Assembly: GCA_002841765.1 (NCBI GenBank)
Contig: PHAV01000002.1
Span: 73,604 to 137,603 of the forward strand
DNA length: 64,000 nt
Direction of reading: 5' to 3'
Source of the DNA: Deltaproteobacteria bacterium HGW-Deltaproteobacteria-4
GTDB lineage: Bacteria > Desulfobacterota > Desulfuromonadia > Desulfuromonadales > UBA2197
This document shows, piece after piece, positions 42,231 to 64,000 of the stretch. A model generated the notes under the pieces. The model did no database searches and had not been told where the DNA came from. It saw only the letters and a list, made by a program, of their open reading frames with translations. Made by a program: the position numbers and the translations under genes. The first letter of the stretch is position 1; each line of letters starts with the position of its first letter.

Positions 42231-42828
42231 AATCAATCTCCTCCCGGTCAGGGAATCGCAAAAAAAGGAAAGGCTACGTGAGCAAGTAGTTGTTTTACTC
42301 GCTTGCGCCATTTTTACAGTCAGCGGTTGTGCTGCTGCCTACACAACTATCCTTGCTAAAATCAGTCAGAAGACAGACGTAATCAGTGAACAGACCAAGG
42401 TGATTGAACAGTTAAAAAAACAGATCGGCGAAGTGGAAAAAGTAAAAAAGTTGCAAGCTGAACTTCAGTCCAAGCTCGATATACTGGGGAAACTCAAGGC
42501 AAATAAGACCGGTCCTGCACACATGCTGGATGAATTGAGTATGGCCATTCCGGAAAAATTGTGGATTGATTCTTTTGATAATATTGCTGGTGCCGTCAAT
42601 CTCAGTGGTATGGGTATCAACGAAGAGATTGTAGCGATTTTTTTACAGCAACTGGAAGCCTCGCCTTATTACATGAGAGTTGAGTTGCAGAGTCTTGAAC
42701 AGGCGACGATTGAAGGGAATAAATTTCAGAGATTTAAAGTTGTTGCAAAGGAAGAAGTGCCTCCAATTAAAAACGTGGATAACGATAAAGCGGCCGTGAA
42801 GAAGTCTGAGCCCGCCCAAAAAACGTAA
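42223..42828 (+). CDS. pilN: Type IV pilus assembly protein PilN
   Basis: MIKINLLP N-terminus, a single TM helix and a coiled coil. Confidence 0.85.
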   Translation: MIKINLLPVRESQKKERLREQVVVLLACAIFTVSGCAAAYTTILAKISQKTDVISEQTKVIEQLKKQIGEVEKVKKLQAELQSKLDILGKLKANKTGPAHMLDELSMAIPEKLWIDSFDNIAGAVNLSGMGINEEIVAIFLQQLEASPYYMRVELQSLEQATIEGNKFQRFKVVAKEEVPPIKNVDNDKAAVKKSEPAQKT

Positions 42829-42836
42829 GGGAGCTA

Positions 42837-43442
42837 TTGATGAATCCGCAGGTTGAAAAGTTTATCAAGTTGCCTTTTTATAAGCGCTTTCTTATAGTTT
42901 TTGTCGTATTGCTTAGTATTACCGGCGCTTTTTACTTCTTTGTTTTTGTGCCCAAGATGGATGAGTACAAAGGGCTGGTCAAGAAGAGTGAGACCTTGCA
43001 GGCGGAAATAGTTCAAAAAAAGAGTATTGCCGATAATCTCGTACGTTTTCGCGATGAATACGATAAGATGCAGCAGCGTCTCGATGAGTCCTTGAAAGAA
43101 TTACCTAACGACAAGGAACTTCCCGAGCTATTGACCAGTATTGCTGCAATTGCCAAACAGAATCAACTCGAAGTGAAAAAGTTTCAGCCGGGGGGCGAAG
43201 TTGCTAAGGGTTTTTATGCCGAGGTGCCGGTCACTTTGACTTTAACTGGTCGCTATCTTGATATTGGCAGGTTCTTTTTTGATATCAGCGAAATGCCTCG
43301 TATTGTCACGGTCGGAAATATTAAGATGAAGACGGTCGGTGGGAAAGCGGCCGGGCAGGTGCTGATCTCGGTCGACTGCCAAGCGACAACTTATCGTTTC
43401 TTGAGTGCTGGAGAGAATCCTCCCCCTGCGAAGAAAAAGTAG
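42837..43442 (+). CDS. pilO: Type IV pilus assembly protein PilO
   Basis: Position in the cluster, a TM helix plus coiled coil, and a LPELLTSI motif. Confidence 0.8.
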   Translation: MMNPQVEKFIKLPFYKRFLIVFVVLLSITGAFYFFVFVPKMDEYKGLVKKSETLQAEIVQKKSIADNLVRFRDEYDKMQQRLDESLKELPNDKELPELLTSIAAIAKQNQLEVKKFQPGGEVAKGFYAEVPVTLTLTGRYLDIGRFFFDISEMPRIVTVGNIKMKTVGGKAAGQVLISVDCQATTYRFLSAGENPPPAKKK

Positions 43443-43458
43443 ACAGTCGGAGTTAATC

Positions 43459-44010
43459 ATGATGAAGGCACAACGAAATCTGTCTAAGTGGTTCGTTATC
43501 TCCTGTGGATTGACTGTACTCGTGGCTTGTGGTGAGGAAACACCCGTCACACCGGTGGCCCCTGCCAAACCCCAACCTCGGAAAGTAGAAGCAGCCAAAG
43601 TCGCACCAGGATCGGTAGAGGGGGGTGTCACCGTGATGGATGCCCTTCCCCCCAAGTACACTTTTGTTACAGAGAATCGCCGGGATCCCTTTCAGCCCTT
43701 TATTTTAATTAAGCGGCCTGTTGATGCCGACGCAGATCTTTCGGCACAAACACCGTTACAGCAGTACGAGACGATGCAGTACAAACTCTCTGCTGTCATC
43801 GTTGGTTATGGCCAACCGATGGTCATGGTCATTGCCCCGGATGGCAAGAGTTATGTTGTACGCAAAGGTATGAAAATCGGCAAAAATGGTGGGACAGTTA
43901 TACAGATCAATAAAGAGGGTTTCCTTGTGGAAGAGAAGTATCGTGACTTCACAGATGTAGTTCGAACCAATATTTTAGAGATCAAACTCCCGAAGCGGGA
44001 AGGAGTCTGA
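43459..44010 (+). CDS. pilP: Type IV pilus assembly lipoprotein PilP
   Basis: Lipobox LVAC, RRDPFQPF motif, position in the cluster. Confidence 0.8.
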   Translation: MMKAQRNLSKWFVISCGLTVLVACGEETPVTPVAPAKPQPRKVEAAKVAPGSVEGGVTVMDALPPKYTFVTENRRDPFQPFILIKRPVDADADLSAQTPLQQYETMQYKLSAVIVGYGQPMVMVIAPDGKSYVVRKGMKIGKNGGTVIQINKEGFLVEEKYRDFTDVVRTNILEIKLPKREGV

Positions 44011-44014
44011 ACTA

Positions 44015-46717
44015 ATGCGATGTGACCAGATAAAATCGAATAAACTCGCCTTGCGCACTATTGTTAGTGGAGGAGTTCTAGCTGTTATTTATCTTCTTGT
44101 CGGTATGGTAATGGCGACAACAGTCTTTGCTGCCGATTTTACTAACCGGATTATGGCTATTGAGAAGAAGGGCGGCAGCGGCATACAGATTATAGCGGAA
44201 AAAGAGATCGGGTCGCGCTACACCAGTTATCTTCTGTCGAAGCCGCCGCGGGTAGTCTTTGATTTCCAGGGCGCGGATATTTCCACGCTTCCAGTTATCT
44301 CTAAATTATCCGAACATCCTGTTAGTGAGATTCGGGTTTCCCTTTATGAGTCTGCATCTGTAAAATCCGGTCGAATCGAATTGATCTTGACGGATCGTGT
44401 TCCCTACAAGGTGCAAATAGACGGGAACATTTTAAACGTCGATTTTACTCCTGACGTTTCCGTTCCTGCTACTCCTCCAGTAGTTGCTCCGCCAGTTGCT
44501 ACTGAACCTCCGGTTGAAGTGGTGAAACCGCCGGTGGACCCTGCAACTTTTTCTGCTCCTCTTGAAAAGCTAACTTCTCCTGCTTCCAGTATTTTGGAAG
44601 TAATCGGCCGCAAGAGCGAAATATTTTTGCGTGCGGATGGAGAACTTGATCGTTGCAAGTCCTTCGCGCTGAAGAATCCTTCCCGTTATGTTGTTGACTG
44701 TTTCGGAGTGATCGAAAAAATCGCGGCTAAGGATGTGCCTTTATCCGGACCGATCAAACTTATTCGCATTGGTAACTATCCTGATAAAGTCAGATTTGTC
44801 TTGGAAGGTGACGCAAAGGTTGTTGACAGGTTGGAATCGTTCCCGGTTATTGATGGTTTGTCGATACGTTTCGATGGGAAGGGGAAGATTCCATCGCAGG
44901 AAGTAACTTCTGATGAAGGGAAAGCCCTTGCAGCGGCAGTTCCTGTGCTGCAGACTAATCCTCCGGAAAAAATCGAGAAAGGGCCGTCGGCACCGCTCAC
45001 GGTGGAAAAAGTTGATTTTAAAGTCGAGGATGGTAAGTCTTTGGTCATAGTTGTCCTCTCCGCACCGGGTGAGGTGATGCAACCGATTAAAGACAAGACC
45101 TTGCTTCGTTTCGGTATCAAGGGAGCAACGATTATTCCGTCATTACGCCGAACCATCGATGCTTCTGCTTTCCCGAGTGTGATCCGGCAAATTACGCCGT
45201 ACATAGTGAGCAACCGGGGGAAGTCCGATGTCCGTTTCGCAGTTGAACTGAAAGGCGACACTCCTTACGAGTTGAAGAATGACGGAAAAGTTGTCACATT
45301 GATAGTTGACAATGGTTCCTTTGCAAAGGGATATGGACCGCTGGATGAGACAATTGAGCTTCCCCTCGCTGTCGCTGTTGAGGTACCGCAAAAAGCGACT
45401 GCAGCGCCTTACCGTGCTGGGAAAACCCGTCCTGAAGTAATCACGAATGAAACGCTTAAAGTGCCTGCGGATAAAAAATATACTGGTCAGATAGTCTCTC
45501 TCAACTTTGACAATATAGAAATTCGCAATGTTCTCCTGCTTATTGCTGAAGTCAGTGATATGAATATTATCGCCAATGATGACGTCAAAGGGGTTATTAC
45601 CCTACGCCTCAATAACGTTCCTTGGGATCAAGCCCTTGATGTGATTCTGGAGTCAAAGGGACTGGGGATGGAGAAAGAAGGGAACATACTCCGCATTGCT
45701 CCTAAAGAAGTTATGTTAAAACGTAAGTTAGACAATGCGGAAACAGAGATGAAGCTCAGCGAAACAAGCGTTAAGGAGACTAGAGCGTTTTCCGTAAATT
45801 ATGGACCGGTCGACGATATTGCCCAAAAAATAAAGGATCAAATCAAGGATAATGGTACCGTTTCAGCGGATGTGAGAACCCGGCAAATTTTCGTGACAAC
45901 AACATCGGACAAACTCAAAGAGATTGAAGTGCAGATCATCAGGCGTCTAGACGTTCCCGACCAACAGGTGACTATAGAAGCACGGATTGTTGAAGCTAAC
46001 TCTAATTTCACCCGAGATCTTGGTGTTTCCTGGGGAATTAGCCAGCAGGGAACGGCTAAGGGTCCCTGGGATCTTAGCGGAGCGATGATCACCGGTGGCG
46101 GCAGCTTTACAATTAATCCCGGAACGCAGGCGACGAATACTACCGGACCCGTATTTAATAACTCTGCGGGGATCGGTTCTATGTTCTCATTCGGTCGTAT
46201 CGGAATTGATAGTACCATCCTCGACCTCCGTCTTTCCGCTCTGGAGGCATCAGGCTACGGGAAGATCGTTTCGACGCCGCGGATTACCACCTCGAATGGT
46301 GAGTCGGCTGAAATTAGTCAAGGGACACAAATCCCCTATCAGACTACAAGCGACAAGGGGACCGAGACCAAGTTCATTGATGCGACTCTGGCGCTAAAGG
46401 TTAAACCGGTCATTAACCCGGATAACTCGATGATTTTGGAAATCGAAGTCTCCAACGATTCAGTCGGTTCGACTGTAGCGGTTGGTGTCGGTTCGGCACC
46501 GTCGATCAATACCAAAAAGGCAAAAACCAAGGTGTTGGTGAAAAATGGCGAGACAACGGTTATAGGTGGAATTTTTATTGAGACCGAGACAGAAAGCGAA
46601 GTGGGAATTCCGCTGCTGCGCAGTATTCCGATCCTTGGCCACCTCTTTAAGTCGACACGAAAAGGCAAGGACAAGACAGAATTGATGATCTTTATTACTC
46701 CAAGGATTGTTGAATAG
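44015..46717 (+). CDS. pilQ: Type IV pilus secretin PilQ with N-terminal AMIN domains
   Basis: C-terminal secretin domain (VKNGETTVIGGIF...IPLLRSIPILGHLF...ELMIFITPRIV), STN/N0 region NFDNIEIRNVLLLIA, 900 aa. Confidence 0.95.
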   Translation: MRCDQIKSNKLALRTIVSGGVLAVIYLLVGMVMATTVFAADFTNRIMAIEKKGGSGIQIIAEKEIGSRYTSYLLSKPPRVVFDFQGADISTLPVISKLSEHPVSEIRVSLYESASVKSGRIELILTDRVPYKVQIDGNILNVDFTPDVSVPATPPVVAPPVATEPPVEVVKPPVDPATFSAPLEKLTSPASSILEVIGRKSEIFLRADGELDRCKSFALKNPSRYVVDCFGVIEKIAAKDVPLSGPIKLIRIGNYPDKVRFVLEGDAKVVDRLESFPVIDGLSIRFDGKGKIPSQEVTSDEGKALAAAVPVLQTNPPEKIEKGPSAPLTVEKVDFKVEDGKSLVIVVLSAPGEVMQPIKDKTLLRFGIKGATIIPSLRRTIDASAFPSVIRQITPYIVSNRGKSDVRFAVELKGDTPYELKNDGKVVTLIVDNGSFAKGYGPLDETIELPLAVAVEVPQKATAAPYRAGKTRPEVITNETLKVPADKKYTGQIVSLNFDNIEIRNVLLLIAEVSDMNIIANDDVKGVITLRLNNVPWDQALDVILESKGLGMEKEGNILRIAPKEVMLKRKLDNAETEMKLSETSVKETRAFSVNYGPVDDIAQKIKDQIKDNGTVSADVRTRQIFVTTTSDKLKEIEVQIIRRLDVPDQQVTIEARIVEANSNFTRDLGVSWGISQQGTAKGPWDLSGAMITGGGSFTINPGTQATNTTGPVFNNSAGIGSMFSFGRIGIDSTILDLRLSALEASGYGKIVSTPRITTSNGESAEISQGTQIPYQTTSDKGTETKFIDATLALKVKPVINPDNSMILEIEVSNDSVGSTVAVGVGSAPSINTKKAKTKVLVKNGETTVIGGIFIETETESEVGIPLLRSIPILGHLFKSTRKGKDKTELMIFITPRIVE

Positions 46718-46792
46718 TCGTTCTCTACATTGAGATGAAAAGGGCAGGCTCTTTGGAGTGTCTGTCCTTTTCTTTATGGCACAAGGGATGTT

Positions 46793-47305
46793 ATGTCTGA
46801 AAAAAATATCATTCTCGTTGGGTTTATGGGGGCGGGCAAAAGTACGGTGGCCGCGGAATTGGTTAGATGTTGCAATTGTCATTTGCTCGATCTCGATGTC
46901 GAGATTGAGCGCCGAAGTGGTCTAAAGATCCAAGAAATTTTCCGCCAGCATGGCGAAAATGTTTTCCGCGATTTGGAGAGTGCAGCTCTATCCGCATTGC
47001 GCGGCCAAAATGGGCTGGTCGTGGCTACGGGCGGGGGAGTTCTGGGTAGACCGGAGAACCGTGAATTGGTCCGATCTGTCGGGCGTGTTGTTTATCTTCG
47101 TACTGCCTTTGCCACCTTACAAAAACGACTTAAACTTTCCAGTGATCGGCCTTTGGTCAAGGAAGAACCGGACTGGAATGCGCTTGAAACTCTCCTCTTG
47201 AGCCGGATTCCTTTTTATGAAACTGCTGATTTGATTATCGACACCAACGATAAAAATCCAAATGAGATTGCCACTGAGATTTTGCAGAGGCTGGCGGAGG
47301 TATAG
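46793..47305 (+). CDS. aroK: Shikimate kinase
   Basis: LVGFMGAGKST. Confidence 0.9.
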   Translation: MSEKNIILVGFMGAGKSTVAAELVRCCNCHLLDLDVEIERRSGLKIQEIFRQHGENVFRDLESAALSALRGQNGLVVATGGGVLGRPENRELVRSVGRVVYLRTAFATLQKRLKLSSDRPLVKEEPDWNALETLLLSRIPFYETADLIIDTNDKNPNEIATEILQRLAEV

Positions 47306-48403
47306 ATGCTGGCAGAAACTTTACTTGTCGGCTTGCATGAGCGCAGTTATCCAATTCGTATCGGTGAAGGAATTCTTGAAGAGATAGGGGCAGAGTTGCT
47401 CGCCATCTCATTCCCGAAAAGAATCGCAGTAATCACCAACCCTCTGGTTGGACGGTTGTATAGCGATATTGTTCTGGATGCCCTGAAGGCGGCGGGATTT
47501 TCTCCATTACGAATCGATATCCCGGATGGTGAAGAATTCAAGACTCTTGATACTGTCAGCACGGTTTACGACGCGTTGATGGCTGCTGGTTTTGACCGGG
47601 GATGCGGCCTGCTGGCCCTTGGTGGTGGCGTCGTCGGTGATCTAGCCGGTTTTGTGGCTGCAACCTTTTTACGCGGCATCCCTTTTGTACAAATTCCGAC
47701 GACCCTTCTTGCACAGGTTGATAGTTCTGTCGGGGGAAAGACTGGTGTTAACCATCCCCTTGGGAAAAATCTGATCGGAGCTTTTTATCAGCCTCGATTG
47801 GTTCTGATTGATGTAAAGATCCTCTCTACCTTATCCACCCGTGATTATCGCGCCGGTTTTGCTGAAGTTGTAAAGTATGGATTGATCCGGGATCAGTCTT
47901 TCTTCATCGAGTTACAGAAAAATGCTGAAAAACTGTGCAATCACGACCCTTCAGTATTGGTCATGGCAATAATGAGGTCTTGCCAAATCAAGGCGGATAT
48001 TGTAGAACGTGACGAACGTGAGGATGGTTTACGTGCTATTCTCAATTACGGTCATACCTTTGGTCACGCTATTGAAAACCTCTCTGGTTATGGCGAATAT
48101 CGTCATGGTGAGGCGGTTGCAATCGGCATGGTCGTTGCTGCAGAAATTTCCGAAGCTTTCGGCCTTTGTACTCACCAGGATGTCGAGGCGGTACGACAGT
48201 TGCTCCTTGCTTTTGACCTGCCGGTGGTCGCGCCACAATACTCTACAGATAAGTTGCTGGAAACTATCGGGCGCGATAAGAAAGTACACACCGGTATTTT
48301 GCGCATGATCCTTAATCGCGGGATAGGCGATTTTGAGATTCGGACAGTTGCTGACCCAGGCGCGCTCTTTTCTGGTATAACCTCCCCGGTTATTGCGGAA
48401 TAA
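47306..48403 (+). CDS. aroB: 3-dehydroquinate synthase
   Basis: GGGVVGDLAGFVAATFLRGIPFVQIPTTLLAQVDSSVGGKTGVN. Confidence 0.95.
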   Translation: MLAETLLVGLHERSYPIRIGEGILEEIGAELLAISFPKRIAVITNPLVGRLYSDIVLDALKAAGFSPLRIDIPDGEEFKTLDTVSTVYDALMAAGFDRGCGLLALGGGVVGDLAGFVAATFLRGIPFVQIPTTLLAQVDSSVGGKTGVNHPLGKNLIGAFYQPRLVLIDVKILSTLSTRDYRAGFAEVVKYGLIRDQSFFIELQKNAEKLCNHDPSVLVMAIMRSCQIKADIVERDEREDGLRAILNYGHTFGHAIENLSGYGEYRHGEAVAIGMVVAAEISEAFGLCTHQDVEAVRQLLLAFDLPVVAPQYSTDKLLETIGRDKKVHTGILRMILNRGIGDFEIRTVADPGALFSGITSPVIAE

Positions 48404-53694: not shown

Positions 53695-55191
53695 GTGAAA
53701 CGATTTTCGTCGCTCTTGATCCTCATTATATTATGGCTCTGTGTCGCCAGTGACGCTGCCGTAGCGGACCCTCTCACTCAAAAAGAGGCTATCCGGATAG
53801 CTCTGGAGCGAAATCTTGCTGTCCAGAGTGAATTGATGAAATATCAGGCAAGCGAGGCGGCGATTACTGAAGCACAGGGACTTTACGACCCCCGTTTGCA
53901 ACTCCTCCTTGATGCTGTCACTAGTCGTGATGCGCAAAACAGTACTCCCGCCACCACCAGTGAGAACTTCGCATCCCGCTTCAATTTTTCTCTCCTGCAA
54001 AAATTGTCGAGCGGTGCAGAAGTAGTAGCGGGGATAAATCAGCGCCGTGACGACAATCTGCAAACGACATCCGCTTTCGATCCGAGCTGGCGTAATGAGT
54101 TTTACCTCTCCTTGACCCAGCCGCTGCTCAAGGGCTTTGGACGGATGGCGACGGAAGAACCGATTCTCCTTGCTGCTAAGGGACGCGATTCCACTATTGC
54201 GACACTGACGGAAGAGGTGACTCTCCTCGTTGCCGACCTTCGTACTCTCTTTGCGGACTTGCGGCGTGCTCACGCCATCCTGGCTTCCCGCCGTGCTTCT
54301 GTTGCCCTTGCCGAAGAGATCCTCGCCGAGAATAAGGCCAAAGTAGATGCCGGCCTACTCCCCCCTCTTGATCTCCTTGAGGCCGAAGTGGCATTGAAGA
54401 ACCGGCAGCGCGAACTTCTTGACGCCGAGCAGTCAGCCGAGGAACTTCTCGATCGCCTCGCAGAACAGCTGAATCTTTCTGCCCCCCCTGAAATTATTCT
54501 TGCCGGTTTCTCCCCGAACAAACTCGCTCCCGCCGAGGAAGCTGATCTGGCCTATGCCCTGCTACATCGCCCGGAACTGCTTCGTGCGCAAGCACAGGGA
54601 GAAAGCCGCCGCCTTGAAGCGACGATTGCCGAAGAGCGCCAACGTCCGGCTCTCGATCTGCTTGCCAGTTACGGGCAGAAGGGGCTTGCTGACGACTACG
54701 GACAGAGTTTGGAACAATCACTACAGGATGATCTGCAGAACTGGTCCGTCGGTTTGGTTTTTAACTATCCTCTGGGTAACCGTCAGGCAGTTGGCGAAGC
54801 AACCCGTAAAAAGTATCTGGCGACAAGCGCACAACGAGATGTCGAGCGTCTGCGTGAGGTCGTCCGGCGTGAATTACGCACGGCCCAGCGTCAGATACTC
54901 CTCGGTGAACTGCGTTTGCAAGTTGCCAGTGATGGTGTGCGTTTCGCTGCTGAAAAGTTGCGAAATCTCCTCAAGCGGCGGGAGGTCGGGCTGACGACGA
55001 CGCGCGCGGTCTTTGAGGGGGAGACCGATCTCGCTCGGGCACAAACCGATATGGCCGATGCTGAGGCCCTCTACGATAATGCGATCACCAGCTATCTGCG
55101 GGCTAGCGGACGTCTTCTCGATTATGAAGGAATCCGTTTCACTCATGATCCGTTTTTGCCGCCTTCTTTTGTTAGCGGAGCAAACCACTGA
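53695..55191 (+). CDS. TolC-family outer-membrane efflux protein
   Basis: Signal peptide, two tandem OEP-type repeats, Leu/Ala/Glu/Arg-rich coiled coils. GTG start. Confidence 0.8.
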   Translation: MKRFSSLLILIILWLCVASDAAVADPLTQKEAIRIALERNLAVQSELMKYQASEAAITEAQGLYDPRLQLLLDAVTSRDAQNSTPATTSENFASRFNFSLLQKLSSGAEVVAGINQRRDDNLQTTSAFDPSWRNEFYLSLTQPLLKGFGRMATEEPILLAAKGRDSTIATLTEEVTLLVADLRTLFADLRRAHAILASRRASVALAEEILAENKAKVDAGLLPPLDLLEAEVALKNRQRELLDAEQSAEELLDRLAEQLNLSAPPEIILAGFSPNKLAPAEEADLAYALLHRPELLRAQAQGESRRLEATIAEERQRPALDLLASYGQKGLADDYGQSLEQSLQDDLQNWSVGLVFNYPLGNRQAVGEATRKKYLATSAQRDVERLREVVRRELRTAQRQILLGELRLQVASDGVRFAAEKLRNLLKRREVGLTTTRAVFEGETDLARAQTDMADAEALYDNAITSYLRASGRLLDYEGIRFTHDPFLPPSFVSGANH

Positions 55192-56012
55192 TGTCGCTGC
55201 GCATAGGCCATATTGCCTACGCTAACTGTGTCCCCTTCTTTTACTATCTGCGTCAATGCGGTTTTTCCGGCGAAATCCGTTCCGGAGTTCCATCGGAGCT
55301 TAATGGACTTCTCTCCGTCGGTGAGATTGATCTTGCACCCTCCTCTTCATTCGAATATGGGCGTAATTCTGGCGGTTACTTTCTTCTTCCTGGGCATTCG
55401 ATCAGTTCCTGCGGCCCGGTGCAGAGCGTCCTCCTCTTCTCTCCGCTCTCCCTCGAAGCACTCGGTAGTACGTCCATCGATCTGACCAGTGAATCCGCCA
55501 CGTCGATCAATCTTCTCAAACTCCTCCTTGCCGAATTTCTTGGGAAAGATCCCTGCTGTTGTCGTCCGGCCGCACAACCGGCAGAAGAGATTGCCGCCCA
55601 AGGGGGAAGTGTCTTGATAATTGGCGACCGCGCGCTGTGCACCGCTCAGCAGCTACGTGGAAAGACCAACATTTACGACCTTGGCGAACTCTGGTGGCGC
55701 TTTACCGGCCTTCCTTTTGTCTTTGCCCTGTGGATCGTCCGCGCCGCTATTGTTGCAGAAGAGGCGCCTGCTCTGCGTATCTTACAGCAACAATTGGCGC
55801 AGTCCCGGAAAATGGCCTTTGCCGATCTTTCCCTTTTGGCAGCAAAGACTCCTGAAAGGCAATGGATGGGAGAAGCCGCACTGATCGATTACTGGCGCGC
55901 CATGTCCTACGATCTCTCTCCGCAGCATCGGACGGGATTACAACTCTATTTTTCCCTCTGCGTCCGGCATGGCCTTCTCATAGAAGAACCGCTCCTTCGT
56001 TTCTTCGAATGA
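55191..56012 (+). CDS. mqnA: Chorismate dehydratase (futalosine-pathway menaquinone biosynthesis)
   Basis: IGHIAYANCVPFFYYL, GEIDLAPSSSFEY, PFVFALWIV. Confidence 0.75.
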   Translation: MSLRIGHIAYANCVPFFYYLRQCGFSGEIRSGVPSELNGLLSVGEIDLAPSSSFEYGRNSGGYFLLPGHSISSCGPVQSVLLFSPLSLEALGSTSIDLTSESATSINLLKLLLAEFLGKDPCCCRPAAQPAEEIAAQGGSVLIIGDRALCTAQQLRGKTNIYDLGELWWRFTGLPFVFALWIVRAAIVAEEAPALRILQQQLAQSRKMAFADLSLLAAKTPERQWMGEAALIDYWRAMSYDLSPQHRTGLQLYFSLCVRHGLLIEEPLLRFFE

Positions 56013-56097
56013 TAGATGCCACTAGGCAGATTTTTTGTAGCAATTGGAAAGCTTTTGATTGACAGAAGCAGCAGAAACGAAAATAATGACTTCCCTC

Positions 56098-56184
56098 GCC
56101 CGGGTGGTGGAATAGGTAGACACAAGGGACTTAAAATCCCTCGATCGTAAGGTCATACCGGTTCGATTCCGGTCCCGGGCACCA
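56098..56184 (+). tRNA. tRNA-Leu (anticodon UAA), class II with a long variable arm, CCA encoded
   Basis: GCCCGGGTGGTGGAATAGGTAGACAC, then AGGGA-CTTAAAA-TCCCT, then variable arm CGATCGTAAGGTCATAC, then CGGTTCGATTCCGGTCCCGGGCACCA. Confidence 0.9.
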
Positions 56185-56195
56185 CTAATGAAATT

Positions 56196-56230
56196 AAGGA
56201 CTTGGCAGATAATGCTGGGTCCTTTTTTTA
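56196..56230 (+). terminator. Terminator after tRNA-Leu
   Basis: AAGGAC...GTCCTT stem plus a T7 run. Confidence 0.65.
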
Positions 56231-56398
56231 TTGTTTCTCTTATCGGTATCATAAATGGACCACAAAAGTATTGAATGAAAAAATTGAGACCGGAGAATTT
56301 TCGGGGCTCTTTTTATTGTGCTACACTACAATTGAGTGTTTAGAAGTTGAGCTTTTAGAAGGTCTGGGTCAATTCACATCATAGCGAAAGGAACTAAC

Positions 56399-56596
56399 AT
56401 GTTCATAGCCAGAGACAAGAATAACGACCTGTACCTGTTCGCTGAATTACCCAAGAGAGGCAACGAATGCTGGTGGGCTGAAGCGGGCTTGGACGGTACC
56501 TATCTTAAGTTGAATAAATCTCTCTATCCAGAAATTACATGGGATTCTGAACCGCTACCGGTCCGACTGGAGTTGCTGAACGGGAGTTTGAAATGA
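56399..56596 (+). CDS. Small hypothetical protein (65 aa), translationally coupled to the MBL gene
   Basis: ATGA overlap with the next gene. AT-rich. No family recognised. Confidence 0.4.
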   Translation: MFIARDKNNDLYLFAELPKRGNECWWAEAGLDGTYLKLNKSLYPEITWDSEPLPVRLELLNGSLK

Positions 56597-58002
56597 GAAT
56601 TACCTTCATTGGTGCCGTGCGTACTGTGACCGGTTCGCAACATCTGCTCGAAATTAACGGCAAAACTATCATGCTTGATTGTGGCCTGTTTCAGGGCAAG
56701 CGCAAGGAAGCCTTCGAGAAAAACCGTAGCGAGTTTTGCCAAGGAGACAGCGTCGACTGCCTGATTCTTTCTCATGCTCACATCGATCACTCGGGCAGGG
56801 TTCCCTGCCTCGTCAGGAACGGTTTTAACGGCGATATTTTTTGTACGTCGGCAACCAGGGACCTGTGTGCCGTGATGCTCATGGACAGCGCCTTTATCCA
56901 GGAAAAGGACGTGGAATTCGTCAATCGTCGTCGCCAGCAGCAGGGGCAAAGTCTCTTTGAGCCCCTCTACACTAAGGCCGATGTGACCAGGTCCATGGAT
57001 CAATTCGTCGGGCTAAGCTACAACCGGCCCCACCAGCTCTTCCCCGGCATCTCTCTTACTCTGGTGGATGCCGGTCACATGCTGGGCAGTGCCCATGTCA
57101 TTCTTGAGTTCGAGGAACAGGGCTCCGGGCAGAAGCGCCGCCTCGTCTTCAGTGGGGATGTCGGGAGGCCTGATATCCCCATCATCCGTGACCCTGTACC
57201 GATTAGCGATGGTGCCGATATTTTGATCATGGAGAGCACGTATGGGAATCGGTTGCACCCTGACTACCTTGAGTCGGAAAAGGAGCTGGAGCGCATTGTC
57301 AATGAAACCGTGAGTCGTGGCGGAGCACTATTGGTCCCGGCCTTTGCCGTCGGCCGCACACAGCAGCTTGTCTACGCACTCCACAAGCTGCACAGCAAGG
57401 GGGCCATTCCCGACCTGCCTATATTTGTCGATAGCCCTCTGGCCACCCGCACCACCGAAGTTTTCCGCCTCCATCCGGAAGTCTTTGATGCAGACGTTCG
57501 CGAGTTTCTCCTCACTGACGGCGACAAAAACCCTTTTGGTTTTGGTCGCCTGCAGTACACTCAGTCGGTGGAGCAATCAAAGGCACTCAACAGTTTGAAA
57601 ACCCCGGCGGTTATCATCAGTTCCGGGGGCATGCTGGAGGGCGGCAGAATTCTCCATCATTTACGGAACCGCATCGAAGATTCGCGCAACACCATTCTCT
57701 TGACAAGCTGGCAGGCGCCCAACACCCTCGGTCGCCGCCTCGTCGAAAAAGAAAAGACCGTGCGCATTTTTGGGGAGGAGTTCCAAGTGCGGGCCAAGGT
57801 GGAGGTCCTGCCCGGTTTCTCCGGCCATGCCGACCGGAACGGGCTCATTAATTTTGTGCGTGCCATGAAAAAGAAACCGCAACACACCTTTATTGTTCAT
57901 GGAGAAGACGATTCCTCCGAGAGTCTGGCCAATGCCCTGCGCAATGAACTGGGTCTCGAACACGTGGCCATTCCGGATTCCATGCAAACTTTCGAGGTTT
58001 GA
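56593..58002 (+). CDS. MBL-fold beta-CASP metallo-hydrolase (RNA-metabolising nuclease family)
   Basis: HxHxDH motif (LSHAHIDHSG), beta-CASP motifs (ESTYG, GFSGHAD, HGE). Confidence 0.85.
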   Translation: MRITFIGAVRTVTGSQHLLEINGKTIMLDCGLFQGKRKEAFEKNRSEFCQGDSVDCLILSHAHIDHSGRVPCLVRNGFNGDIFCTSATRDLCAVMLMDSAFIQEKDVEFVNRRRQQQGQSLFEPLYTKADVTRSMDQFVGLSYNRPHQLFPGISLTLVDAGHMLGSAHVILEFEEQGSGQKRRLVFSGDVGRPDIPIIRDPVPISDGADILIMESTYGNRLHPDYLESEKELERIVNETVSRGGALLVPAFAVGRTQQLVYALHKLHSKGAIPDLPIFVDSPLATRTTEVFRLHPEVFDADVREFLLTDGDKNPFGFGRLQYTQSVEQSKALNSLKTPAVIISSGGMLEGGRILHHLRNRIEDSRNTILLTSWQAPNTLGRRLVEKEKTVRIFGEEFQVRAKVEVLPGFSGHADRNGLINFVRAMKKKPQHTFIVHGEDDSSESLANALRNELGLEHVAIPDSMQTFEV

Positions 58003-58073
58003 TAGTTTGTAACTATTTAAAATTACAAGTAATACTTAAAACTGCTTGGCAGAACGATTTTGCTGGATACTCC

Positions 58074-58140
58074 TTCAATTCTCGTTTCGGGCACCACAGT
58101 AAAATTAGGGACTTGGCTTTTTAAGCTAAGTCCTTTTTTT
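58074..58140 (+). repeat. Degenerate copy of the tRNA-Leu 3' end plus its downstream terminator
   Basis: TTCAATTCTCGTTTCGGGCACCA matches tRNA TTCGATTCCGGTCCCGGGCACCA at 18/23 positions. The following sequence AAATTAGGGACTTGGC...GTCCTTTTTTT parallels 56185-56230. Confidence 0.75.
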
Positions 58141-58483
58141 GTGTACGTCCGTTAGGGCGCATAGGTCGCAAGTGCCAATGATTTAAGAGGGATATTTGCA
58201 AAATATAATTTTATCGACCAGTTGCTTCAAAATAATAAGCTGTTAGAATTTGATTATTAAGTGAAATTTTATTCCGCTTAGGTAGAATGACTCAGTAGAA
58301 AATGCTAACTAATTTATAATGTTGTGTATTTCTTTGTCGAGTTAGCCCGTGTTCTTCTTTCTGGTGGCTGAATGAGACAGGATTTATCGGGTATTTGAGG
58401 GAGTTTTTTGGTGAGAATGGATGGTCATAAGCACAAAACGCTTTGTGACCGAAAGGAGATTTACGCATGACAAAGGAGGCGAC

Positions 58484-59692
58484 ATGAAAAGATGGCAATC
58501 CCTGTTGGCGGGTTTTGCCGTGTGTCTGCTTGGCATCAGTCTAGCCGAGAGCGCTCAGGCGTTGTCGATTTCGGGACGATCAAGTTCCGAAATCGAATGG
58601 TTTGACAATGCTGATGGAGACACGGCAGTTCCCGCCTACGAGTACCTGCTGCTCAATGTCAAGGATATCGATGGCGCCGGCCTTAACTTCCGTGGTTACG
58701 GTCGCATCGCCGATGATCTGGCCAATGAGGTCAATGTTGACAGTCGGCTCTACTACGCTTATCTGGAAAAGCGTGAACTGCTACCTAACTTCGATATCAA
58801 GCTTGGTCGCCAGTTTATCTCTACGGCGGGCGGGGCTTCGTTAATGGACGGGCTCTATCTGAAAGCCCGGGATCTGGGACCCTTCAGCTTGACCGTCTTT
58901 GGCGGCGGCGATGTTTCCTACTACGCCGGCTACAACGCCAAGGATTTGATCGATGGTGTCGAACTCTCCGGGAAGTTCGATGCTCTTCAGCTAGGGATCT
59001 CCTACATTCAGCGCTGGGAAGAGAGCGAACTCGCCAACGAATTGATCGGCTTCAATGCCGATTATGAGTACCGAAAAATGTTCAGCCTCTTCGGTGAGGG
59101 CCAGTTCAACTACCTCTCGAATAGCATCTCCTATTTCAATGGCGGCTTTGTTTACCACCGTGACCCAAACTGGTCGCTGCGCGGCGAATACCTCTATTCG
59201 CTCCCGGTCTTCTCCTCAACATCGATCTATTCGGTCTTTGCCGTGGATGAATATCAGGAGGTCGCAACCGAACTCAGCTTCCGCCACGGTCAGGGCGTCC
59301 GGTCATTTGTCAAATACACCCGGGAAATTTATCAGGACTTTGATGACGCCAATGTCCTTGAAGGCGGGGTCGAGAAGATCCGCACCGATCGTTTGTCCTA
59401 CTACCTTGCCGGCGTGCTGCGCGAAGGGAACGATGGGCAGGATCTGCGAGGAATTCGGGCGCATGGTTCCTGGCTCTTCAATCGTTATTTCCGGGCCGGT
59501 ATCGGCGCTGATCTTGATGTGCTTGAACGGCGCATTGAAGAGACCGATGAAACAAGCAGCTCGCGGGTGTGGGTCGATGCGACCGCCACAATCAGTAAAA
59601 AAATCAACGTCGAGGCCAAAGTCGAACGGGCGGAAAGCGACCTGTGGGACGAGTATTACCGGGGTCGCGTTCGTCTGAACATTCTCTTCTGA
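58484..59692 (+). CDS. Outer-membrane beta-barrel (porin-like) protein of a porin-cytochrome cluster
   Basis: Signal peptide MKRWQSLLAGFAVCLLGISLAESAQA, alternating beta-strand pattern rich in Y/G/D/R, and a C-terminal ...VRLNILF ending in Phe. Confidence 0.7.
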   Translation: MKRWQSLLAGFAVCLLGISLAESAQALSISGRSSSEIEWFDNADGDTAVPAYEYLLLNVKDIDGAGLNFRGYGRIADDLANEVNVDSRLYYAYLEKRELLPNFDIKLGRQFISTAGGASLMDGLYLKARDLGPFSLTVFGGGDVSYYAGYNAKDLIDGVELSGKFDALQLGISYIQRWEESELANELIGFNADYEYRKMFSLFGEGQFNYLSNSISYFNGGFVYHRDPNWSLRGEYLYSLPVFSSTSIYSVFAVDEYQEVATELSFRHGQGVRSFVKYTREIYQDFDDANVLEGGVEKIRTDRLSYYLAGVLREGNDGQDLRGIRAHGSWLFNRYFRAGIGADLDVLERRIEETDETSSSRVWVDATATISKKINVEAKVERAESDLWDEYYRGRVRLNILF

Positions 59693-59705
59693 AAGGAGTG
59701 CCGAT

Positions 59706-60521
59706 ATGATTCGTATACTGCAACTGTTCACCGTCGGCCTGCTCCTCGGGGCATCGACACTGTGGGCCACCGATTTTAACCACGCCGGCCATCAACTCAT
59801 GGCTGGAGATCTCTCCTGTGTCGCCTGTCATGCGGAGGATAATCGTGATATTCGCCCCGATAACAAGGTTTGTCTTGAGTGCCACGATGAGGCCTTTGTC
59901 GATAATCTCAAATTGCCAGGATTAGTCACCCACGACGTAACCTGGGCGCTGACTCACCGTGGCGCAGCACTCGCCAAGACCTATGATTGCTCTGCCTGTC
60001 ACGAGCAGGATTATTGTCTCGACTGCCACAAAGCCGGGCGGGCCGATGAAATGGGCAAGCTCGGTAACACCATGACCAACGTTCACCGCTCCGAGTTTAC
60101 CGTCACCCACCCGATCGCGGCGCGCACCAACCCGCAACTCTGTAACAAATGCCATGAGAGCAAGTTCTGTGTTGAGTGTCACGATGATTTCAATCCTGCC
60201 GATTTGGCCCTTGACTCCCATCGCAAAGGCTTTACCAACGGCACCCTCGGTGGGCAACATGCTTTTTACAGCGATCAACAATGCCAGGGCTGTCACACTA
60301 ACTCAGTGCTGCCGAGCCACCAATGGTCGAATAGTCATGCCCGCGAAGCGCGAAAAAACCTGGCCACCTGTCAAGCTTGCCATCCTGATGGTGATGTCTG
60401 TCTTAAATGCCACAGTGCCAAGAGCGGTTTGATGGCCAACCCTCATCCTCGTGACTGGGATGATGTTAAAAATCGTCTTAAGCGGGCCAGTGACGCTAAA
60501 ACTTGTCGTAAATGCCACTAA
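59706..60521 (+). CDS. Periplasmic decahaem c-type cytochrome
   Basis: Signal peptide plus 10 CXXCH motifs counted in 271 aa (CVACH, CLECH, CSACH, CLDCH, CNKCH, CVECH, CQGCH, CQACH, CLKCH, CRKCH). Confidence 0.9.
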   Translation: MIRILQLFTVGLLLGASTLWATDFNHAGHQLMAGDLSCVACHAEDNRDIRPDNKVCLECHDEAFVDNLKLPGLVTHDVTWALTHRGAALAKTYDCSACHEQDYCLDCHKAGRADEMGKLGNTMTNVHRSEFTVTHPIAARTNPQLCNKCHESKFCVECHDDFNPADLALDSHRKGFTNGTLGGQHAFYSDQQCQGCHTNSVLPSHQWSNSHAREARKNLATCQACHPDGDVCLKCHSAKSGLMANPHPRDWDDVKNRLKRASDAKTCRKCH

Positions 60522-60544
60522 ACGCTCTGAATAAGGAGGAAAAA

Positions 60545-62746
60545 ATGCGCAAAAATAAGTATCTAGCAATTGTCGTTGTTTCGCTCTTCTTGTCGACTCT
60601 TTGGGGTTGCGGAAGCAACTTGGATTCGGGCGGCGATCAAACCGGACCGGACAGTACTTTGGCAGATGCCCAGCCGTTAGGAATAAATAATTGCCTGACC
60701 TGTCATCAGGCTGAGACTGGCGTTGCAAAAACCTGGTTGGCTGGCGTTCATGGCAACCCGGCGGTCAGTGAACCAAACAACGGATTGGTAGACCCCGCAT
60801 GCCTGACCTGCCATGACCAGTTGGGCGACGGACAAAAACTTTCCACAGCAACGAACGGAATTGTGGCCAACCGACCGGTAGTAAGCTGCGAATCGTGCCA
60901 CGGTGGAGGGCAGTATCACAACGGGATTGCTGCAGGTATCCCTTTTGCCTCCCCCGATTCCAACCGCTGCGGGCAGTGCCACAACGCCACCTTCCCGCAC
61001 GGGTCTTCCCCTGAAGGAAAAGGAATCGTCGAAGCATTTCAGGCATCGCCGCATTCTCGATCTCTCAATGCAAGTGTGTTTGTAGCGGGAACTACCAATG
61101 TGCGTGCCCGTTGCTCTAAGTGCCATAGCGACGAAGGGGCGAAGCAGTATCTGAACGTTGATGGCGACTACGCGTACCTCAGCGCCAACTTGCCGAATAC
61201 CTTGGCGCCAGTAAGCGATGCAAACAACATTGACTGCCGCACCTGTCACTCTCCACACCAGGAAGATCAATTGCTTGAGGCGGAGTCGACAGGCCGCAGT
61301 TCAGAGTTCAACACTTGCACCAACTGTCATCAACTGTTGCAAGCGAGCAGTAGTGCAAAGATCATTGCTTATCATGATCCGGCAGCCAATCAGTACGGTG
61401 CTGTGAATGAGATCATTACCGACACCCATTTTGCTACTCCCGGAAATTTCGTCAACGGTACTAATAACGCCGATATTTCCGGGTATGCTTTCGATTTCTC
61501 CAGCAATCGCGCTTGTCGCGACTGTCACAACCCGCATAACGCCGACAACACCATCAATAAGCAGTGGGCCGCCTCCGGACACGCAGATACAACGGCGGCC
61601 GGTGCATGGGCTCATTACAACTGGACCGAAGTTCCCGGCGCCGTTCGTAACGACTTCACCGTCGTCAGCGCATTTGGTGACCGTCGCCCCTGCCAGCGTT
61701 GTCATACCACTACCGGTGTCATTGCCTATTTGACCGCCAATACCGATGCCGATCCCGCTGAATATGCGGCGCCACTGGCGTACAACTCCAATTTCAAGCC
61801 GGAGATGCTCAAGTGCAACGGTTGCCATACCGATAGCGTCGGTACCCTGCGTACCACAGGCCGAATTACTGCTCCCTATACCAATGCACCTGACCAATAC
61901 CCCGCTGCTGCCGGGTCTAATCTCTGTTTGGCTTGTCACACCGGAGTTGAGAGTGGCGAATCAATCAAAAATTCCAGCGCTAATTTCGCCGCCACCGGTT
62001 TCATAAACTCGCATTACCTTACCGCTGGAGGCACGGTTTTCGGGAAGTCTGGCTACACCTTTGGAGATCGTAATTATGCGATCCCCGCTGGCGACCGCCA
62101 CGACAAAATCGGCATGGGCATTGCCACCGGTGACGCCAATTTTGATGCCGTGCGCGGCAACTACACCGAGGGGCCCTGCGTCACTTGTCACTTCGACAAC
62201 AATGATGGCTCGCACACACTCAGTCCCTTGACTGAGTACTCCCCCGGCGATGTCTCTCTGAATCCGGTTTGTGTCGTTTGTCACTCTTCCCGCGGCGCCG
62301 GTACCAATGCCGAGACCACATGGCTTGGCACGGATGAGATTGCAGCGACCCTGCAGGGGTCGACCCACAAGGCACGTTATCAGGCGGCTCTTGAGGCGCT
62401 GAAAGTGCAATTGGCCAACAATGGCTACGCATTCACCACTGGCTACCCCTATTTCGCCAATACGAACTGGACCGTGGGTATCTCTAGCGACGGCAAAGCC
62501 AATATGGGCGCCGCCTTCAATTACAATCTGCTGATTCATGATCCAGGTGGTGTGGCCCATAACCGTCGCTACACTCGGCGGCTGATTTACGATGCTATCG
62601 ACCATCTGGATGACGGCATACTTAACTATTCGGTCTTTTCCACCCTCAATGCCCTCGATGTTTCCGCTGTTTATAAGTCCAGTGCCATCGCTTACCTGAT
62701 TAATAATGGGGCGGTCAATGGAGGGACTGCGGCCGAGCGTTTTTGA
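60545..62746 (+). CDS. Multihaem (13 CXXCH) lipoprotein c-type cytochrome
   Basis: Lipobox LSTLWGC. 13 CXXCH motifs counted. AGGAGG RBS ahead of the ATG at 60545. Confidence 0.9.
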   Translation: MRKNKYLAIVVVSLFLSTLWGCGSNLDSGGDQTGPDSTLADAQPLGINNCLTCHQAETGVAKTWLAGVHGNPAVSEPNNGLVDPACLTCHDQLGDGQKLSTATNGIVANRPVVSCESCHGGGQYHNGIAAGIPFASPDSNRCGQCHNATFPHGSSPEGKGIVEAFQASPHSRSLNASVFVAGTTNVRARCSKCHSDEGAKQYLNVDGDYAYLSANLPNTLAPVSDANNIDCRTCHSPHQEDQLLEAESTGRSSEFNTCTNCHQLLQASSSAKIIAYHDPAANQYGAVNEIITDTHFATPGNFVNGTNNADISGYAFDFSSNRACRDCHNPHNADNTINKQWAASGHADTTAAGAWAHYNWTEVPGAVRNDFTVVSAFGDRRPCQRCHTTTGVIAYLTANTDADPAEYAAPLAYNSNFKPEMLKCNGCHTDSVGTLRTTGRITAPYTNAPDQYPAAAGSNLCLACHTGVESGESIKNSSANFAATGFINSHYLTAGGTVFGKSGYTFGDRNYAIPAGDRHDKIGMGIATGDANFDAVRGNYTEGPCVTCHFDNNDGSHTLSPLTEYSPGDVSLNPVCVVCHSSRGAGTNAETTWLGTDEIAATLQGSTHKARYQAALEALKVQLANNGYAFTTGYPYFANTNWTVGISSDGKANMGAAFNYNLLIHDPGGVAHNRRYTRRLIYDAIDHLDDGILNYSVFSTLNALDVSAVYKSSAIAYLINNGAVNGGTAAERF

Positions 62747-62900
62747 CAATTGGTTCAGTATTAGTAACGACTGCAAGATTAAGTCAGTTAACCCTTTAAA
62801 ATGACGGAAAGTACAGGAACGTAGTGGCCGCTAATGGGGGTTGGGTAGACCATGGCAGCCACCTTTTTAGATCCCTTAACAGGGAAAGGAGAATAAGGAC

Positions 62901-64000
62901 ATGAAAACTGATTTGTGGAAAAATGGGAACGGGAAGAAATTCTTACTAGTTGCGTTATTGGCTCTGGCGGTTACCTTGGCTGGCTGCGAGGGCGATGACG
63001 GCTCTCAAGGGCCTCAAGGCCCTGCCGGACCTCCGGGGGGGGCAGTTGTTGATGCGTCAACCACTTCTGCCGCCACTCTGGCAGAGATTGATGTGCAGTC
63101 CGAAATTACCAGTGTGACCATTGCCAGTCCTCCCGTTGTTAACTTTACCTTGAAAGACAGCAACGGAATCGGCATTACCGGGTTGGCCGCTCTAAAAGAA
63201 AATGATGCCCGCTTTATCCGTTTTACTTTAGTTAAACTGGTCCCTGCCGCAGCTAACAGTGGCAACACAAGTTCTTGGGTTAGTTATATCCGGGATAGCG
63301 ATGGTCTGCCTACTTACGACAACGCCGGTACTCTGGTCGATCATGGCGACGGCAGCTATACCTACACCTTTGCCACTGATGTGGCAAAGGTTGCAGGCGT
63401 TACCTATCAGCCGACCTTGACCCATCGCCTCGGTGGACAGATTGGTAGCAGTTCTGTGGCCCTGGAAGCGCAAAACTTTGCCTATGATTTTGTCCCGGCC
63501 GGGGGCGCCGTGACCGCCATGCGTAACATCGCGACCATGAGTTCCTGTAACGAATGCCATGGTAATCTGGTCTTTCATGGCCGCCGCTTTGAAGTTGAAT
63601 ACTGTGTGACCTGCCACAACCCTGACCTAGTTGTGGGTCCTGATTCTTTTGATATGTCGACAATGGTCCACAAAATCCACTCGGCAAACTCGACCTATGT
63701 CGACGGCGATTTTGCTGAAGTGACCTACCCCCAGGAGAAAAACTGTCTCAAGTGCCATAACGGGGCGGACAGTGCGACACCGCAGGGGAATAACTGGCAG
63801 ACCAAGCCGATCATGGCCGCCTGCGGTGGTTGCCACACGGTCGACTTCGCTACCCATCAGGGCGGACAGACCGATAACAGCGCCTGTGCCGGCTGTCATT
63901 CTCCCACTGCGATTGAAGGCTATCACCTGTCGGACAATGCTACCGAAAACAATCCGAATGTTCCGGCTGGAGCGGCCAACCTCACTTATGAAATCAAAGA
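62901..64000 (+). CDS. OmcA/MtrC-family multihaem lipoprotein cytochrome, N-terminal 366 aa (3' end beyond the window); absent from the ORF track
   Basis: My own translation is MKTDLWKNGNGKKFLLVALLALAVTLAGCEGDDGSQGPQGPAGPPGG... with no stop up to nt 64000. RBS is AAGGAGAA. Five CXXCH motifs so far, including SCNECHGNLVFHGRRFEVEYCVTCHNP, which matches the remembered OmcA/MtrC signature. Confidence 0.85.
   Translation, partial: MKTDLWKNGNGKKFLLVALLALAVTLAGCEGDDGSQGPQGPAGPPGGAVVDASTTSAATLAEIDVQSEITSVTIASPPVVNFTLKDSNGIGITGLAALKENDARFIRFTLVKLVPAAANSGNTSSWVSYIRDSDGLPTYDNAGTLVDHGDGSYTYTFATDVAKVAGVTYQPTLTHRLGGQIGSSSVALEAQNFAYDFVPAGGAVTAMRNIATMSSCNECHGNLVFHGRRFEVEYCVTCHNPDLVVGPDSFDMSTMVHKIHSANSTYVDGDFAEVTYPQEKNCLKCHNGADSATPQGNNWQTKPIMAACGGCHTVDFATHQGGQTDNSACAGCHSPTAIEGYHLSDNATENNPNVPAGAANLTYEIK

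Follow-up and report, generated by a model that had tools for sequence, protein, structure and literature searches.

A ribonuclease operon flanked by tRNA-Leu(UAA) and a degenerate repeat of its 3' end in a Desulfuromonadales genome

The subject of this report is a segment of some 1.9 kb that lies between a tRNA-Leu(UAA) gene and a degenerate downstream duplicate of the 3' end of that gene in Deltaproteobacteria bacterium HGW-Deltaproteobacteria-4, a member of the Desulfuromonadales. The window, by which we mean the whole stretch analysed, comprises 64,000 nucleotides of contig PHAV01000002.1 (assembly GCA_002841765.1, positions 73,604 to 137,603 of the forward strand), and the coordinates below refer to it unless a related locus, designated by an L number, is named. 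We conclude that the segment is an ordinary, immobile trace left by an insertion at a tRNA gene, one more case of a familiar kind of structure and not a new defence or toxin system, and that the conserved ribonuclease (RNase) operon it carries is an unusual but unremarkable cargo. In this group of Desulfuromonadales the 3' side of tRNA-Leu(UAA) serves as a hot spot of recombination, and the window preserves the fixed scar of one insertion there; to a site-specific origin of that scar, through an integrase, we give about an even chance.

The direct repeat and its two terminators

The tRNA-Leu(UAA) gene (56098-56184, plus strand) is functional as judged by ARAGORN (anticodon taa) and by the Rfam tRNA model (59.2 bits), and is preceded by a sigma-70-like promoter (56059-56087, plus strand; TTGACA-17-AATAAT, 11 of 12 positions) in a region that is about 90% identical in L028, L033 and L040. 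The direct repeat begins within this gene, at the ATAC that forms the base of the T stem, and extends to the last base of a terminator T-run. Copy 1 (56155-56229) thus takes in the T arm and the acceptor 3' strand, a spacer and the first terminator, here called term1, and copy 2 (58067-58140) consists of a degenerate piece of the tRNA 3' end (58067-58096) and, after it, a terminator hairpin that is still intact, both copies lying on the plus strand. They are identical in 56 of 75 alignment columns with one gap, the longest exact runs being 9-11 nt, and recur with a period of 1912 nt, 1837 nt separating one from the other. The local alignment score of 36 is to be compared with 7.6±1.4 (maximum 15) in 5000 shuffles of the target, corresponding to a z of about 20, and with 17 for the best unrelated tile within the window. 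An earlier note, made from the sequence letters alone, had reported that the last 23 nt of tRNA-Leu (56162-56184) recur at 58074-58096 with 18 of 23 identical and that the similarity runs on through the spacer and the terminator hairpin; both observations are confirmed, the repeat being slightly longer than was then described and starting at 56155 and 58067.

The two halves of the distal copy have fared differently. Over 58067-58096 the tRNA piece matches the last 30 nt of the window tRNA at 22 of 30 positions and the allele of the closest relatives at 24 of 30, so that it carries 6 changes in 30 from the clade consensus; in annotation it should be recorded as a tRNA fragment, not as a gene. 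The hairpin of copy 2 (58107-58135, with its T-run at 58134-58140) is intact, having 13 pairs, two of them now A-U in place of G-U, and is the only terminator-like site detected 3' of the RNase gene. Term1, immediately 3' of the tRNA at 56196-56229, is a 12-bp hairpin (56196-56224) with a T-run (56223-56229). The two terminators are 79% identical to each other, and their folding energies (-17.9 kcal/mol at 56196-56224 and -18.8 kcal/mol at 58107-58135, z about -5) mark both as strong intrinsic terminators. Term1 is common to L040 and also resembles the terminator of L005, a distant relative (score 22, the 95th percentile of the null being 10). That the displaced terminator of the tRNA now closes the inserted operon appears to be the reason for its retention.

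Between the RNase gene and copy 2 lies an AT-rich filler of 63 nt (58004-58066, plus strand), homology to L040 and L013 ending at 58003. Two other candidate similarities in this neighbourhood were set aside. The resemblance of the filler to term1 through a shared CTTGGCAGA is not significant (p=0.17). At 56236-56325 a putative third occurrence of the tRNA end with its terminator scores 15 against copy 1, a value reached by 4 of 3000 shuffles, and is not significant against copy 2 or in L013, so that we treat it as an ordinary weak hairpin.

Different DNA follows the same tRNA gene in related lineages

The window matches a 272-kb metagenome contig of the Joint Genome Institute (L020, JGI 3300029890) on which every gene tested is 100% identical; the same protein occurs on 4 assembled contigs, L020 being the single locus inspected. 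Other relatives were found by protein searches and context look-ups, a metagenome scan with MqnA having given only distant relatives and an exact-sequence look-up of MqnA no match. The block accC-p160-OEP-MqnA-tRNA-Leu(UAA) is kept in about twenty fetched loci. Among those with at least 2.5 kb downstream, representing about a dozen lineages, none has the two genes of the window operon after the tRNA, and each differs there. The earlier note had held that its reading would fall if all relatives carried both genes at this position, and about a dozen lineages clearly lack them.

What stands in their place is varied. After tRNA-Leu, L028-30 (MqnA identity 89%) have hipBA and a PIN gene, and L033 (86%) has genes for a tautomerase, alanine dehydrogenase and DoxX on the minus strand, followed by the same outer-membrane-protein and cytochrome cluster as in the window. 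In the more distant L011 (54%) a P4-type tyrosine integrase gene lies 160 nt after tRNA-Leu (11343-12819 of that locus; 409 aa, with Arm-DNA-bind_3, Phage_int_M and Phage_integrase domains), the tRNA end not being repeated within the 9 kb fetched, and L021 (58%) has a DDE transposase nearby. DNA homology of the window with L028, L032 and L033 ends at 56184-56186, and homology with L033 restarts at 58419, ahead of the porin-cytochrome cluster, after a different filler of 2.7 kb.

The closest relative found is L040 (MqnA 92.7%), which is collinear with the window over 54000-58003 at 90.4% identity, including the tRNA, term1, a 21-nt spacer and the operon. Past the RNase stop codon L040 continues with an 85-nt tail common to L013, then about 90 nt, and then a terminator and flank homologous to those found directly after tRNA-Leu in L001 (score 28 against 9.8±1.5) and L028 (score 20). 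The cassette in L040 consequently sits between the tRNA and an apparent earlier terminator, an arrangement that, to judge by these alignments, provides the strongest available evidence of an empty site. In a third lineage, L013-L016, the unit corresponding to 56252-58003 and the same tail occur, at 91% identity, elsewhere in the genome, between a helix-turn-helix (HTH) gene beside hipA and a DUF2780 gene; no tRNA lies close by. The hairpins that follow the RNase gene in L013 and L040 are different ones.

Two candidate features of these loci were rejected. A decayed tRNA fragment before the distal terminator of L040 is not significant. A 14-nt motif, AAWTTTCTCRCAAA, shared by L021, L032 and L040, belongs to a third terminator type in L021 and L032, stands alone in L040 and is absent from the window.

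Taken together, the different DNA after the tRNA in each lineage, the integrase of L011, the filler of L033 and the terminator of L040 argue for insertion at a tRNA hot spot. The earlier note had offered a decayed islet that lost its integrase as one of two explanations; of this proposal the insertion at the tRNA 3' end is demonstrated by the homology breaks and by L033, L040 and L011, and the islet reading itself is plausible.

T-arm alleles and the relative age of the two copies

The five closest relatives (L040, L028, L032, L033 and L001) have an identical 30-nt tRNA end, ATACGAGTTCGATTCTCGTCCCGGGCACCA. Relative to these, the T stem of the window tRNA (56159-56176) is CCGG/CCGG where theirs is CGAG/CTCG, a difference of two compensated base pairs, and copy 2 reads CTCC/CTCG, retaining the state of the relatives in its 3' half. 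Copy 1 and L040 differ at nine sites, and of these copy 2 has the L040 state at 5, the copy 1 state at 2 and neither at 2. The alleles would thus fit, but do not prove, a working tRNA completed by incoming DNA and a distal piece that is the displaced older end, since L040 combines term1 and the operon with the usual T arm and since the two window terminators are variants of a single type that recurs in L005; the CCGG/CCGG allele may reflect either replacement by incoming DNA or compensatory evolution.

Partial 3' fragments of tRNA-Leu(UAA), mostly starting at or near the anticodon loop, are found in IMG/VR viral contigs, and all are CCGG/CCGG; their presence there counts as evidence for use of this tRNA by integrases. 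The same allele is carried by L003. In one viral contig, IMGVR_UViG_3300044712_001634, two such partial fragments starting at the anticodon loop (L074, 102-207; L078, 10763-10864) are each followed by a terminator-like hairpin, one of which resembles the tRNA-Leu terminator of L028 and L001. A tRNA end together with a terminator can therefore be present on elements or at their borders. A search of viral contigs for the tRNA end together with the term1 stem gave 19 matches, about the chance expectation by estimate, of which only L050 is partly tRNA-like, and the pattern was discarded.

The cargo: a TTHA0252-type beta-CASP ribonuclease

As the earlier note had described, the DNA between the copies consists of low-GC DNA, an open reading frame (ORF) of 65 aa and, joined to it by an ATGA overlap, an ORF of 469 aa for a metallo-beta-lactamase (MBL)/beta-CASP protein. 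DNA of about 42% GC lies between the copies. Copy 1 is separated from the small ORF by about 170 nt of low GC content, divided into a short spacer common only to L040 and outside the unit shared with L013 (56230-56251, plus strand) and the operon leader (56252-56398, plus strand), which forms the left end of the 1.75-kb unit common to L013-L016 and L040. The leader holds a weak hairpin with a T-run at 56286-56309 (-7.9 kcal/mol, z=-1.4), kept in L013 and L040 as a perfect 9-bp stem with CTG/CAG where the window has CCG/CGG. It also holds a 15-nt tandem duplication at 56332-56361 (TTGAGTGTTTAGAAG / TTGAGCTTTTAGAAG), of which L040 and L013 have a single copy.

The larger protein (56593-58002, plus strand) shows the Pfam domains Lactamase_B, Beta-Casp (PF10996, 2.6e-38) and RMMBL (PF07521, 2.9e-18), and among solved structures it is closest to TTHA0252 of Thermus thermophilus (PDB 2dkf, E=1.5e-79), a non-essential 5'-3' exo-RNase that affects global mRNA levels (PMC4229858) and belongs to the bacterial CPSF-73-like subfamily of beta-CASP proteins. 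The domain order (MBL, beta-CASP, RMMBL) is the same in both, and the match over residues 1-447 aligns every catalytic motif: HAHIDH as HxHxDH, and motifs A, B and C as the E of ESTYG, the H of GFSGHAD and the H of VHGE, respectively. The window protein differs from TTHA0252 in length (469 against 431 aa), in an insertion of about 20 residues near residue 103, and in that its gene is preceded by the translationally coupled 65-aa gene. The family is large, with 6776 database proteins at E<=1e-120, and is strongly conserved, the members of the best 120 clusters being 78-96% identical and nearly all of 467-470 aa (range 425-491) in Desulfuromonadales and Geobacteraceae; MqnA from the same kinds of organisms drops below 60% identity. 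To judge from these relationships the cargo is the lineage's own conserved TTHA0252-type beta-CASP ribonuclease, not a foreign gene, and probably acts as a 5'-3' exo/endo-RNase in mRNA turnover.

A relationship to Cas14 of type VII CRISPR-Cas extends to the homologous nuclease module (PDB 8yhd, E=6.6e-64), and the Cas14 model NCBIfam NF045584 is matched at 412.7 bits over its positions 1-425 of 612. This is far under the cut-off of 800 bits, the C-terminal third of the model being unmatched, and, unlike Cas14, the window RNase is conserved as a single gene across a bacterial order. For annotation we recommend naming it a TTHA0252-type beta-CASP RNase, not Cas14 or a defence gene. In the viral contigs searched for the cassette the RNase has no close relative.

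The 65-aa protein and the question of a gene pair

The small ORF (56399-56596, plus strand) encodes a conserved, beta-rich protein with 71 close homologues that are 59-97% identical, the few named ones belonging to Desulfuromonadales and Geobacterales; the residues invariant among them include ARDK, the run CWW and two further leucines. A profile search recovers 845 clusters (50% identity, E<=0.001) of remoter relatives, mostly of 60-70 aa, some of which are tandem two-domain proteins. The ORF is thus a real member of a large small-protein family with no Pfam match; it matches no NCBIfam family either, and has one weak PHROG match of unknown function. The AlphaFold model is confident (predicted local distance difference test, pLDDT, 86) and likewise beta-rich, and the predicted fold matches only uncharacterised phage proteins (template modelling score 0.86) and none in PDB; in the viral contigs only distant relatives of the protein occur, at 27% identity.

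The earlier note had supposed that the small ORF and the nuclease could form a two-gene accessory module, toxin-antitoxin-like or defence-like, and had suggested asking whether the small gene always precedes a beta-CASP gene. It does not. The two genes are paired only in the window, L040 and L013-L016, and the small gene stands alone in four lineages (L017/18, L019, L036, which is Geomesophilobacter, and L037-39). Conversely, the complete genome L041 (GCA_942492875.1) has an RNase gene 87% identical to that of the window, preceded by a DUF1003 gene and with no homologue of the small gene in the locus. This confinement of the pairing to the immediate clade of the window argues against an obligate two-gene module.

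A few observations concern the genes around the RNase in other genomes. In L041 (1-4000) the RNase gene adjoins a SMODS/AGS_C (CBASS-like) locus and two hipBA pairs, and in L013 (1-5500) it lies near two hipA genes, HTH genes and an NTP_transf_8 gene.

We regard a toxin-antitoxin-like or anti-phage module as extremely improbable. In its favour are the ATGA coupling, the keeping of the pair in L013-L016 and L040, the hipBA and CBASS-like neighbours in L013 and L041, the phage-only matches of the predicted small-protein fold and the relationship of the RNase to Cas14. Set against these are the low Cas14 score, the silence of PADLOC, which has no family for either protein of the pair, the small gene unpaired in four lineages, the RNase of L041 that lacks the partner, and the housekeeping-like conservation of the RNase, in sequence and in length, throughout the order. 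A more elaborate alternative, which we consider very improbable, is that term1, leader, small ORF and RNase gene would constitute a recombinase-less cassette that is still or was recently mobile, tRNA-Leu-specific integrases moving it in trans between the flank of tRNA-Leu, where the window and L040 have it, and islands of toxin-antitoxin or defence genes, as in L013, and the 65-aa protein with its phage-type fold serving as an inhibitor or specificity factor of the RNase. If such a mobile cassette with a dedicated 65-aa partner did exist, its two genes would make up a new RNA-targeting module with a relationship to the ancestor of type VII Cas14.

Origin of the insertion

The explanation we favour, with confidence that is evenly balanced, is a site-specific event catalysed by an integrase, because the layout is the standard signature of tRNA integration and because an integrase uses the orthologous tRNA in L011. 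On this account DNA bearing its own T arm, acceptor end and terminator, and then the small-ORF/RNase operon, would have recombined inside the 3' part of the tRNA gene, such that the incoming copy now completes the working tRNA and the former tRNA end and terminator were displaced 1.9 kb downstream to 58067-58140. The displaced tRNA piece would then have decayed, its intact hairpin being positioned to terminate the RNase operon. The most likely agent would be a tyrosine integrase acting at the T-arm region, either carried on a larger islet that was later trimmed by a deletion at the RNase stop codon, or supplied in trans. In this small clade the RNase has become translationally coupled to the small protein. 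With no recombinase left and a degenerate distal site, the segment can no longer move.

Several observations weigh against this account. Neither in the window nor in L040 was an integrase or a remnant of one detected, and the earlier note was right on this point for the segment itself, where neither ORF has an integrase domain and gene calls within ±8 kb show none; with the P4-type integrase of L011 as tblastn query there was likewise no match in the window. The interval is just 1.9 kb, is wholly occupied by a host-like operon and fails both the integrase and the length filters of Islander. Beyond the tRNA the repeat continues for another 45 nt, into the terminator, both terminators being of the same type, and such a terminator-spanning repeat also fits the joining of two versions of one chromosomal locus. 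The junction at the RNase stop codon is abrupt and is followed by filler, and at 75% identity between the repeats a crossover core, the mapping of which was attempted, cannot be located. L040 shares the left junction yet has the usual T-arm allele and no significant distal tRNA fragment, so that one simple ancestral event cannot explain both genomes. Finally, the operon gives no compositional sign of a foreign origin, its composition being typical of the window (GC 0.550; GC at third codon positions, GC3, 0.650; codon-usage distance 0.111 against 0.142±0.033), and its nucleotide identity to L040 is 92%, against 87-92% for the flanking host genes. For the operon and L013 the corresponding value is 92-93%, similar to the 87.5-90% of host genes in L028, from the same study as L013. 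A divergence equal to that of flanking host genes fits vertical descent and not recent acquisition, and the operon looks vertically inherited, its position shifting between lineages.

An origin that dispenses with an integrase is therefore to be weighed, and we consider it unlikely, although a serious contender. DNA of a sister lineage arranged as in L040 (MqnA, tRNA-Leu, term1, operon) would have replaced the left flank by homologous recombination anchored in the MqnA-tRNA region and been joined illegitimately within the T arm of the recipient, whose T arm, terminator and cytochrome cluster were left downstream. The route could be homology-facilitated illegitimate recombination, a process known from several bacteria (PMC3240628), or else a single crossover of the Campbell type by a fragment that had circularised. 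The host-like composition and divergence of the cargo would follow, as would the lack of an integrase; the two terminators are variants of one locus-specific type, term1 occurring also in L005; and the homology to L040 and L013 breaks exactly at the RNase stop codon, after which come 63 nt of filler, much as an illegitimate junction would look. The configuration and orientation of the fragment and its edge at the T stem are nevertheless those of integrase sites, the L011 integrase does use the orthologous tRNA, and the phage-like CCGG T-arm allele of the working tRNA is not explained by this route in itself.

Distinctly less probable, in our judgement, is a late arrival of the right side, in which tRNA-Leu, term1 and operon would be the older arrangement, as in L040, and a segment with an adjacent tRNA-Leu, terminator and porin-cytochrome cluster would have been joined just past the RNase stop codon, bringing with it a piece of the donor tRNA. 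That L040 shares the whole left part and continues past the stop codon differently, in part as L013 does, is in keeping with this, as are the linkage of the cytochrome cluster to tRNA-Leu in another lineage, L033, and the closer likeness of copy 2 to the allele of the relatives than to the window's own tRNA. The L040 insert, however, has at its far border the terminator found after the tRNA in L001 and L028, so that the operon is the inserted part there, and a fragment on the cytochrome-cluster side is what is expected of the original chromosomal flank. The other explanation of the earlier note, that the distal copy is the remnant of a second, tandem tRNA-Leu with its own terminator, leaving the operon between two tRNA genes of which one is dead, is already largely refuted, and we assign it almost no probability. 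An exact anticodon-loop word, ACTTAAAA, does stand isolated in the filler at 58034-58041, roughly in register with the repeat although 7 nt off. Against this, the 63 nt before 58067 match the 5' part of the tRNA no better than shuffles do (score 8, p=0.22) and do not fold unusually (z=-0.4), the Rfam tRNA model (E<=10) is silent upstream of copy 2 and ARAGORN at the distal copy, and the identity, about 75% within the repeat, is lost abruptly to background level at a single edge, a profile that uniform decay would not give. In the fetched stretches of the relatives checked there is neither a second tRNA-Leu(UAA) nor a repeat of its 3' end.

By whichever route the insertion came about, the locus is a clean example of a tRNA 3' flank acting as a swap site. 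Sister lineages about 90% identical in DNA each differ in the genes they have there, be it the RNase operon, hipBA-PIN, three metabolic genes or an island with an integrase, and a conserved housekeeping-type gene, besides foreign DNA, can become the cargo of such a scar. The locus opens no long-standing question.

Flanking DNA and other features of the window

To the right of copy 2 lies AT-rich intergenic DNA (58141-58418, 35-36% GC), which has no counterpart in L033, and then the first gene of the outer-membrane-protein and multihaem-cytochrome cluster (58421-59692, plus strand). The longest ORF starts at 58421, the likely true start being 58484, in agreement with the JGI gene call. The cluster occupies 58421-64000 and runs in L020 to about window position 65170; it begins with a 423-aa signal-peptide protein with no Pfam family, followed by three multihaem cytochromes of 271 aa, 744 aa and, MtrC/OmcA-like, 756 aa. 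It looks like a porin-cytochrome electron conduit, and is conserved at 82-89% amino acid identity in L033, likewise downstream of tRNA-Leu.

Elsewhere in the window a transfer-messenger RNA gene (37996-38352) specifies the tag peptide ADTDVRYALAA. The ORFs at 17575-19335 and 41166-48403 have a GC of 0.42-0.49 and a lower GC3, the window mean being 0.55, and these regions may have been acquired.

Comparison with known integrative elements

Two classes of described elements offer the nearest parallels. CIMEs (cis-mobilisable elements) are islands that lack integration and transfer genes but retain attL and attR (ICEberg 2.0, PMC6323972). The window likewise presents a short integrase-less segment between direct att-like repeats, and its cassette recurs at the same tRNA in L040 and elsewhere in L013. 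In CIMEs, however, the att sites are intact, whereas the distal site of the window is degenerate, the repeats being only 75% identical; and CIMEs are mobilised by a known cognate element, whereas no cognate integrase or element was found for the window segment.

The islands catalogued by Islander (PMC4383910) are bounded by an intact tRNA and a downstream 3' fragment in the same orientation, sites in the T-stem region accounting for 1836 of 3919 islands. From these the window departs in several respects, as there is no tyrosine integrase inside the interval, the length of 1.9 kb is under the 2-kb limit of the filter (2-200 kb), the fragment reaches an identity of only about 75-80%, the repeat does not stop with the tRNA but takes in a further 45 nt through the terminator, and the cargo is a conserved host-like gene, not foreign DNA. 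In common with them the window has an intact tRNA at one end and, downstream and in the same orientation, a fragment of the cognate 3' end whose left edge falls at the T-stem region; its content is likewise absent from the same site in most relatives (about a dozen lineages), being present only in L040; and the same tRNA is used by an integrase-bearing island in the relative L011.

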